6,131 nucleotides of DNA from a virus (IMGVR_UViG_2690316166_000019); one strand, 5' to 3'; numbered from the stretch's first letter, positions 330 through 2,307 are shown. Notes: generated by a model not told the origin, from the letters alone. Numbers and translations: made by a program.

Positions 330-2307
330 TTATTCTGCTTTACCAATAACGATATTTACGAAAGCTTCAGAGTGTGCAAGTGCGATATCTGAGTAATCCC
401 ATACGCGATATACGATAGTGTTACTTGAACGATAGGATGTATCGTCATAATCTACTTCCTGCCCTTCCCAATTAGCGAGAATTACATTGGAGAAATCGCC
501 CATTAGAATAGTACCATCTGCTACGAATTCAGAAATCACTACACGTACTTCATCAGCAAGCCACATTTCAGTACTGCGATAACCTTCAACCATTGCTTTA
601 GCAGCAGTGTTATCAAGTACTGCAATCTGACGTAGGGTACTTAGGGTTTTAGCGTTCATAACAGCTTTAACGCCACGCATATCAACGTTAGCCTGTGCCA
701 GCTTCGCTACTGCACCCTGAACATCTTCAAGAGTAATAGAACCAGCAGTTTCAACATTGAACACCGGAGCAGCGGCAACTACTTTATCCATTACATTTTG
801 CTCAAGACCCTGAGCGGCATACCGTAGTAGTTCACTTTGTACAAATGATTCAATATTTGGAGCCGTTAGAATTGCTTGTTTGGATAGTGGAATAGCACCA
901 CCAAAAGCTTTAGGGCTTAGGGTTACTTTAGTAAAGCTTGCAATAGAATCATCCTGTGCTTCTGCTTCACCATAGAATTTAAATACCGGAGATACACCAG
1001 CCGCTTTTGGAATACTTAGAGTACCGCGACCTGCAAGGCCAGAATAAACAGTGGTGTTTAGTTCACCAAGTGCAGAAATTTTTAGTAGTTCTGGAATGTA
1101 TTGATCTTGTAGGTCATCAGCTACAACGCCAGCAGCGGTAGTAGTATTAGTACTTGGTACAGCCGCACGTACAAAACCANNNNNNNNNNNNNNNNNNNNN
1201 NNNNNNNNNNNNNNNNNNNNNNNNNNNNNNNNNNNNNNNNNNNNNNNNNNNNNCTACAACGCCAGCAGCGGTAGTAGTATTAGTACTTGGTACAGCCGCA
1301 CGTACAAAACCATTAATACCACGTTCATATGCTTCAAGAGCAGATTTATCGCCAGTTTTAATGGCACGTACCATATCTTTTAATAGATTTTTATTATCCA
1401 TTTCTTTGATTTCCTTATCATGAAGAGGATTTTGTTTAATGTCATTCAATTGACGTTTGAAATCTGAAATTGAAATTCCTGTTTCAATTGCTTCAGATAC
1501 ATCAATATTAAGTACTTTACCGAGTGCTTCTAATTCACGAATACGTTCAGTATCTTCTGTACTATTTATACTTTCTGGTTCTTCACCATGTACTTTATTG
1601 AGCAAATCAGGTCGAGTAGAGATAATTTCTAAAAGTTCTTCATCACTTAATTCTTGTTTGATTTCTTCTGCATATTCGACCGATGGCTCTACTAATGCCT
1701 CTTCAATTGTTTCATTTACTTCTTCAGTACTATCAACAATTGATTCCTTTTCGTTTTCTGGATTATCCATATCCATTTGACCCTCTTGAATTGTTTCACC
1801 TTCTTTATTTAGTGATTTCAATGCAAGTTGTGAGTCCATTGAACGACCTACCCCAACGGTAGGATCGGCAGGTACTGTTACTAATGAGATTTCATAAATT
1901 TCGTAGTTGGTAACATAGATATTATTACCATCAATTTGATAATCATTAATGTTATAGCCAATGCTAATATGGGTTAGTACGCCTTCCTGAATCATTTCCC
2001 ATTCATCGTTGGCGGTACTGCTAATTCGTAATGTAGCTCTACCAACGCGATCAGCATCCACTCGTGCATCAACTACAGCACCAATAAGATCATCACGGTT
2101 ATGGTTAAAGAGTACTGCCCCATTGTTATTAAGGCGGGTTAGGTCTGCGTTACTGGAACCACATAGAAGAATTTCGTTATAGATTTGACCGTTGATTTCA
2201 CGTTCTACAGGGGTTTCTGAACAAAACGCTACTTCGATGGTACGCGATTCTGTATTAATCGCCTGTAGGGGTTTCGTTAGTTCCCTCTTCTGGTTTTTCA
2301 TTTCCAT
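330..2307 (-). CDS. Tripartite capsid gene: HK97-family prohead protease + acidic scaffold/delta domain + HK97-fold major capsid protein. Appears as two ORFs (330..791, 1147..2307) only because of an N-run with duplicated flanks; about 614 codons once the duplication is collapsed
   Basis: N-terminal ~155 aa carry prohead-protease motifs ([29 protein letters not shown]). Residues ~165-330 are strongly acidic and helical (scaffold/delta-like). The C-terminal ~270 aa include [28 protein letters not shown], resembling the HK97 gp5 segment RQVMDDAPMLQSYINNRLMYGLALKEEGQ. I translated the minus strand from 791 up to 1179 in the frame of ORF 330..791 and found no stop. Removing the 133-bp artifact (74 N + one 59-bp copy) brings ORF 1147..2307 into that same frame. 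Start ATG at 2305-2307 is preceded by AAGGAAG. Confidence 0.75.
1121..1312. repeat. Perfect 59-bp direct duplication (1121-1179 = 1254-1312) flanking a 74-N run (1180-1253); scaffolding artifact, not a biological repeat
   Basis: Both copies read ctacaacgccagcagcggtagtagtattagtacttggtacagccgcacgtacaaaacca, ending and starting exactly at the N-run. Collapsing to one copy yields a continuous capsid ORF. Confidence 0.85.

Follow-up and report, generated by a model that had tools for sequence, protein, structure and literature searches.

A prohead protease-linker-capsid fusion gene with conserved candidate internal start sites in an insertion-sequence-bounded prophage remnant

The viral DNA IMGVR_UViG_2690316166_000019, a stretch of 6,131 nucleotides (nt) that is referred to here in its entirety as the window, carries at 330-2307 on the minus strand one gene in which a prohead protease, an acidic linker and an HK97-fold major capsid protein are encoded in a single frame. 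The gene is very probably an ordinary member of a widespread tailed-phage family of S78 protease-linker-HK97-fold capsid fusions. This architecture is already known, common and named, and family models for it exist. What may be the sole potentially new point is a pair of conserved start signals inside the frame, at Met178 and Met303, from which protease-free products would be translated.

Results

A single 614-codon frame

Every gene of the window lies on the minus strand. The gene at 330-2307 is interrupted in the assembly by a run of 74 N (1180-1253), which sits between exact 59-nt copies at 1121-1179 and 1254-1312. With positions 1180-1312 taken out, an uninterrupted open reading frame (ORF) of 1845 nt, encoding 614 amino acids (aa), extends from the ATG at 2307-2305 to the TAA at 332-330, and the Shine-Dalgarno sequence of Met1 is AAGGAAG at 2323-2317. 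The gene is made up of the following parts.

1254-2307, minus strand: 5' block of the fusion gene, codons 1-351, collinear with 9585-11054 of the Escherichia coli prophage L001
1180-1253: scaffolding artefact of 74 N, recognised from its 59-nt duplicate flanks and from uninterrupted relatives
330-1179, minus strand: 3' block of the fusion gene, codons 333-614 and the TAA (332-330), collinear with L001

The junction sequence was found once in each of four independent assemblies that are 98-100% identical to the window. In the intact E. coli prophage L001 (GCA_050402125.1), window block 1254-2723 maps to 9585-11054 and block 33-1179 to 10996-12142, in collinear order and with 98.4% and 99.8% identity, and the 59 nt are exactly the overlap of the two mapped blocks. 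In three IMG/VR contigs (L011-L013) the junction is in single copy and the encoded 614-aa protein is 100% identical. At the protein level, no insertion or deletion was found at residues 333-351 in P0001 (E. coli, 614 aa, 99% identical to the fusion protein), in P0015 (Shigella sonnei, partial, 41 member sequences, 100% identical over 541 aa) or in more than 100 full-length homologues. One residue change, Val254 to Ile (codon ~1546-1548, minus strand), is all that separates the window protein from P0015.

The 74-N gap is a scaffolding artefact between contig ends that truly overlap by 59 nt, and one continuous protease-linker-capsid frame is confirmed in the window, as the initial annotation had proposed when it collapsed the gap to a frame of about 614 codons. 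The idea that the window holds two separate genes, with a stop or frameshift inside the N-run and the fusion an artefact of collapsing it, draws its sole support from the unresolved N-run in this assembly and deserves practically no credence: a hidden stop is ruled out by the exact duplicate flanks, by the four assemblies in which the sequence is single-copy and in frame, and by the homologues that run unbroken through the junction, and a second N-run of the window has the same kind of overlap artefact (8 nt).

Six N-runs occur in the window (1180-1253, 2724-2746, 2866-3797, 3824-4095, 4204-4711 and 5377-5417). Compared with uninterrupted relatives, their lengths do not give the true gap sizes: the run at 2724-2746 conceals the 8-nt contig overlap, 41 N replace 7 nt, and 508 N replace approximately 436 nt.

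Domains and predicted structure of the fusion protein

Three regions were delimited in the protein.

1843-2265, minus strand: prohead serine protease domain, Peptidase_S78, aa ~15-155 (PF04586, PHROG 80, invariant columns, and an AlphaFold predicted local distance difference test score, pLDDT, of ~80)
1276-1842, minus strand: acidic linker/scaffold (delta-like), aa 156-344 (TIGR01554 alignment, composition and AlphaFold)
333-1142, minus strand: HK97-fold major capsid domain, aa 345-614

The HK97-type protease domain that had been noted at the N-terminus and the HK97-like capsid domain were both recovered above the curated cutoffs in a profile search with the merged protein. Pfam gave Peptidase_S78 (PF04586) at aa 61-153 with 38.7 bits (cutoff 21) and Phage_capsid (PF05065) at aa 350-608 with 64.9 bits (cutoff 24.2), and PHROG 80, 'head maturation protease', matched the fusion protein at 2e-18. 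In an alignment of 38 homologues of 47-99% identity, His69 (codon 2103-2101) and Ser115 (1965-1963) were invariant; we take these to be the catalytic pair, equivalent to His65 and Ser114 of HK97 gp4. A ClpP or S49 domain was not found, as Pfam at E <= 0.1 yielded Peptidase_S78 and two capsid families only, and a ClpP-type protease was ruled out on this basis.

The region between the two domains had been described as an acidic helical segment of about 170 aa. Its acidic character held, with 46 Asp and Glu versus 20 Lys and Arg over aa 156-335, and the length had to be revised to about 190 aa (156-344, net charge about -26), of which only aa ~222-318 are predicted to be helical. TIGR01554, the HK97 major capsid model that includes the delta region, aligns from aa 262. 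In the AlphaFold model of P0001, the N-terminal domain is folded (aa 15-150, pLDDT ~80); it is followed by an acidic stretch of low confidence that is predicted to be disordered (aa 157-220), by helices along aa 222-318 and by a C-terminal domain that is again folded (aa ~358-610, pLDDT 75-88). The best structural matches of the model on the capsid side were the HK97-fold capsid proteins of R4C (8gta), phiXacJX1, HK97, the gene transfer agent RcGTA and a capsid-forming phage-inducible chromosomal island (cf-PICI), together with encapsulins, which bears out the capsid assignment of the C-terminal domain. A profile search of the PDB returned capsid chains alone, with no solved S78 protease found.

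Membership in a known fusion family

In the initial annotation the novelty of the fused architecture was overstated: a large family is already annotated in PHROG 617, in PHROG 4523 and in isolated phages. PHROG 617, 'major head protein', matches the protein end to end at 1e-83 (aa 3-607 on positions 6-620 of 626), PHROG 4523, which also matches, is named 'major head and protease protein', and the fusion protein itself has 99-100% identical entries in NCBI. Related proteins number at least 741, and both Pfam domains are present in nearly all of the best 120 listed. Full-length homologues occur in isolated phages of Vibrio, Halomonas, Xanthomonas, Burkholderia, Escherichia, Achromobacter, Rhodobacter, roseobacters and Synechococcus; by tblastn, 96-99% of the query was covered in VP882, phiHAP-1, FoX/Murka, Mica, ep3 and S-LBS1. 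Full-length structural matches in BFVD, among them proteins of Lactobacillus and Lactococcus phages, bear the label 'Prohead protease' or 'Major capsid protein'. A fusion of major capsid protein and protease has been reported in the Rhodobacter RcC phages (PMC8601537), and genome announcements of actinophages routinely use the annotation 'major capsid and protease fusion protein'. A preprint on the cyclic oligonucleotide-based antiphage signaling system (CBASS) has protease-scaffold, not protease-capsid, fusions as its subject.

Two profile scores count against this placement. NCBIfam NF045541 (scaf_prot_MCP2, 'prohead protease/major capsid protein fusion protein') gave 126 bits against a cutoff of 525, and the match covers aa 17-289 on profile positions 1-250 of 634; TIGR01543 gave 47 bits, which is under its curated cutoff. 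Because both scores fall below their cutoffs, neither model was used for membership. The fusion protein is related to NF045541 in its N-terminal half and lies outside that specific model.

The closest isolated-phage hit is Escherichia phage DCP80 (L092, PQ671644.1, 3310-10226), at 31% identity. This 141-kb record is filed under Straboviridae/Tevenvirinae and bears a lambda-like terminase-portal-fusion module, in which all genes are labelled 'hypothetical'. Such a placement looks odd and may reflect a chimeric or misclassified record.

Conserved start signals inside the frame

Two in-frame ATG codons downstream of the protease domain are candidate internal starts.

1774-1785, minus strand: candidate internal start 1, Met178, with ATG at 1776-1774 and GAGGG at 1785-1781, 4 nt upstream
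1399-1416, minus strand: candidate internal start 2, Met303, with ATG at 1401-1399 and AAGGA at 1416-1412 upstream

Conservation of these signals was examined in 43 relatives with less than 90% mutual identity, drawn from genomes and IMG/VR. Six Met columns are conserved in this set, and a Shine-Dalgarno-like sequence lies upstream of three of them, Met1, Met178 and Met303. The predicted duplex with the anti-Shine-Dalgarno sequence at these three has a median of -6.0 kcal/mol, and in at least 94% of the sequences it ranks within the best 10% of all codon positions of the respective gene; the corresponding share is 0% for Met105, Met449 and Met528. Met178 is conserved inside an otherwise variable acidic stretch and is preceded by GAGG, AGGA or AAGG at ~7-8 nt. 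Met303 is Met in 37 of 37 aligned homologues from Enterobacteriaceae and in 42 of the 43 wider relatives.

Judged by codon choice, the signals before Met178 and Met303 are held at the nucleotide level and not at the protein level. GAG makes up 46% of Glu codons at -5 to -3 before Met178 versus 9% elsewhere (Fisher p = 5e-11), and AAG encodes the Lys before Met303 in 42 of 43 sequences versus 25% elsewhere (p = 2e-23), where both p-values treat related sequences as independent. The residues before Met178 vary (EG, KD, KE, ER, EE, ED, GE) while the GG core is kept, with at least eight dipeptide solutions.

Among relatives of only 23-31% identity, the first in-frame ATG after the protease domain again has a Shine-Dalgarno motif. 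Such starts were found in R4C (Met189, GGAGG), phiHAP-1 (Met152), ep3 (Met216) and a Neisseria prophage (Met185), in VP882, where Met185 has the best motif of the whole gene, and in DCP80, where Met180 with its motif is accompanied by Met321. A post-protease start appears to be a conserved feature shared by Enterobacteriaceae prophages with Vibrio, Halomonas, Neisseria and roseobacter phages. The Met303-type signal was seen in the Enterobacteriaceae clade and DCP80 only.

We judge it even odds or slightly better that one or both internal starts are used. An arrangement of three products in one gene, in which proteins started at Met1, Met178 and Met303 share a C-terminus and co-assemble, is in our judgement an even or slightly better bet. 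Met1 would give a 67-kDa protease-scaffold-coat protein, Met178 a 48-kDa scaffold-coat protein of 437 aa without the protease, and Met303 a 33-kDa coat protein of 312 aa with a leader of ~45 aa. Only a fraction of the subunits would then carry a protease, as with lambda C/Nu3 and herpesvirus UL26/UL26.5, and the protease:scaffold:coat ratio of the procapsid would be set by three ribosome-binding sites inside one ORF. The initial annotation had the protease delivered into the procapsid covalently attached to the coat subunit. Protease and coat do share one frame; that every subunit carries a protease is made insecure by the internal start signals, and most coat subunits may be made without one.

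Several points weigh against the use of internal starts. A convincing internal Shine-Dalgarno sequence is absent in Murka and S-LBS1, and that of Mica is weak. The linker is rich in GAA and GAG codons, which raises the background of purine-rich motifs, and the p-values overstate significance because the sequences are related. Use of the internal starts is read from sequence conservation.

The strongest alternative, to which we assign a somewhat less than even chance, is the one implied by the initial annotation: Met1 alone is used, and each of the ~415 coat subunits in a T=7 shell brings its own protease and scaffold, as has been assumed for Gifsy-2. The conserved internal ATG codons and purine motifs would in that case be incidental to a linker that is acidic and AT-rich, or would serve some other end, such as pausing or as a cleavage-site motif. 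The uninterrupted ORF with its good Shine-Dalgarno sequence at Met1 fits this account, as does the lack of internal Shine-Dalgarno sequences in the distant Murka and S-LBS1, and in the literature searched neither experimental support for internal products nor a description of nested translation in S78 protease-capsid fusions was found. It is harder to reconcile with signals that are confined to three of six conserved Met codons, are upheld by strongly skewed synonymous codon choice, and recur past the protease domain even where relatives are no more than 23-31% identical.

Proposed processing and maturation

Direct support for processing comes from one family member: R4C gp006 is 629 aa long, and its solved virion capsid chain (8gta) corresponds exactly to the C-terminal 268 aa, from Gly362. 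Neither the protease nor any processing is mentioned in the R4C structure paper, and among the papers listed for phiHAP-1 none seemed relevant. By homology with R4C, the mature coat N-terminus is predicted near Ala348/Gly349, which would give a mature protein of ~28.5 kDa, and by the same analogy the protease and linker would be removed proteolytically to leave a mature coat protein of ~270 aa.

The steps proposed here draw on HK97 and lambda biology and refer to an intact relative. Capsid domains would assemble into a procapsid around the portal, with the N-terminal linkers and attached protease facing the interior and the linker acting as an internal scaffold or delta domain. Being covalently attached, the protease would be enclosed in the procapsid, where it (His69/Ser115) would digest the linker and itself. 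The fragments would exit, a coat protein of ~266 aa starting near Gly349 would stay, and the shell would expand upon packaging of DNA by the lambda-type terminase.

Gene neighbourhood and the prophage remnant

The gene order in L001 is Nu1-like small terminase, GpA large terminase, a 176-aa gene, lambda portal, fusion gene, FII-like gene and tail genes, the last including a major tail protein, a gene of tape measure size and a tail-tip protein. No separate protease or scaffold gene was found in the L001 head module, so the fusion gene must supply both functions. The lambda-type terminase and portal that had been noted next to the fusion gene were identified upstream of it as a GpA large terminase and a lambda-family portal. 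The other features of the window are given below.

1-34: IS911 terminal inverted repeat, by the annotation of the Sf6 record (IS, insertion sequence)
35-316, minus strand: FII-like head-tail attachment gene, truncated by the IS911 end so that its last ~13 codons are missing
2255-2865, minus strand: lambda-family portal gene, visible 3' part (stop at 2257-2255), the remainder masked by N-runs
4712-6098, minus strand: GpA-type large terminase, first ~132 codons missing
6099-6131: IS2 terminal inverted repeat, by the annotation of the SfX record

The terminase is truncated at its 5' end because the IS2 end abuts the gene. The window is a 5.6-kb head-module remnant that reaches from an IS911 end to an IS2 end and has no tail genes, a status that the initial annotation overlooked. 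In L011 an IS2 end lies 11 nt past the IS911 junction of the window, and L012 and L013 continue as intact prophage. A megablast search with window positions 1-2723 against phages, complete E. coli genomes and plasmids returned the IS911 end (34 nt) only; the phage DNA proper was not found in those collections. Judged by its sequence, the remnant most likely resides in Shigella sonnei. The fusion gene is preserved as an intact ORF and, to judge from the truncated genes around it, is stranded in a dead remnant, where it can make no contribution to phage production.

An origin of the module from a capsid-forming satellite (cf-PICI-like) or from a domesticated element resembling a gene transfer agent (GTA) is very improbable and was rejected: the near-identical L001 has a full set of tail genes beside the head module, related IMG/VR contigs are phage-sized (30-38 kb), and truncation by IS911 and IS2 explains the head-only content of the window.

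The last 53 nt of the portal gene are also the start of the fusion gene (2255-2307), and similar overlaps are present in VP882 (44 nt) and ep3 (23 nt), with a coupling or damping of initiation at Met1 as a possible effect. Between the large terminase and portal lies a conserved gene of ~176 aa, found at 8015-8545 in L001 and visible at ~4096-4203 in the window, where the rest is masked. It has no Pfam hit and is far larger than lambda gpW, and its counterparts of the same size and position in VP882 and R4C are annotated 'head-tail joining'.

Discussion

As it stands, the finding is modest: a known head-gene architecture in a decayed prophage, with a gap that is an assembly artefact. It has some value for annotation, in that fusion genes of this kind go under varying labels ('major capsid protein', 'prohead protease' or 'hypothetical'), and short-read scaffolds can break them up. 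The internal starts, if true, would settle the stoichiometry question for the whole fusion family. One reading frame would then provide the phage with all the parts for building its shell, in fixed proportions, and the principle of lambda C/Nu3 and UL26/UL26.5 would be extended to genes with the coat protein inside the nest.

The fusions of isolated phages are the closest known systems. The same three-part order and a size of 600-685 aa, with homology that is collinear over the full length, are shared by gp07 of Vibrio phage VP882, gp05 of Halomonas phage phiHAP-1, gp006 of roseophage vB_DshS-R4C, gp5 of the Xanthomonas phages FoX/Murka ('major capsid protein and protease') and the fusions of Burkholderia phage Mica, the E. 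coli phages ep3 and ECO1230-10 and the Rhodobacter RcC-cluster phages. As in the window, these genes directly follow a lambda-family portal, often with an overlap. The window protein differs in being only 23-31% identical to those of the isolates, and it belongs to a prophage lineage of Enterobacteriaceae for which the hits include no isolated phage. The actinobacteriophage fusions (clusters AN, AU, AW and EE) follow the same concept, as likened by their annotation term, and differ in their setting, having Gram-positive hosts.

In HK97, the protease (gp4) and the delta-capsid protein (gp5) are the products of two genes, and the protease is targeted to the procapsid non-covalently. The window gene shares with HK97 the protease family (PF04586, TIGR01543) and the capsid family (PF05065, TIGR01554). 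Separate protease and delta-capsid genes of the HK97 type were not found in the window, which has a single ORF; unlike in HK97, this gene joins both proteins covalently, via an extra acidic disordered stretch of ~100 aa.

The protease of Gifsy-2 is reportedly ClpP-like. As in the tripartite capsid gene of Gifsy-2 (Effantin et al. 2010, Virology 402:355, cited in PMC8538268), a protease, a central segment (~200 aa) and an HK97-fold capsid protein are encoded in one frame within a lambdoid head module. The window protease is a Peptidase_S78 and is not homologous, and the two layouts are merely analogous. Since a ClpP-type protease was not found, the window has a Gifsy-2-like layout on a different protease, and the analogy originally drawn, with an HK97-type protease in its place, agrees with the Pfam result (S78 found, ClpP and S49 not found at E <= 0.1).

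Nested protease/scaffold genes are known from lambda (C/Nu3) and herpes simplex virus 1 (HSV-1; UL26/UL26.5). In Haloferax virus HFTV1, the nested start of gp17/gp17.5 has been shown by ribosome profiling (bioRxiv 10.64898/2026.09.13.751334). An in-frame start with a ribosome-binding site after the protease, as in lambda C/Nu3, is present in the window as a sequence signature, and as in all three of these systems it would yield an abundant protease-free protein that shares the C-terminus of the full-length product. In lambda C/Nu3, UL26/UL26.5 and gp17/gp17.5, what is nested is a free scaffold, while a separate gene encodes the coat protein. Unlike those, the predicted nested products of the window gene would keep the coat domain and may number two.

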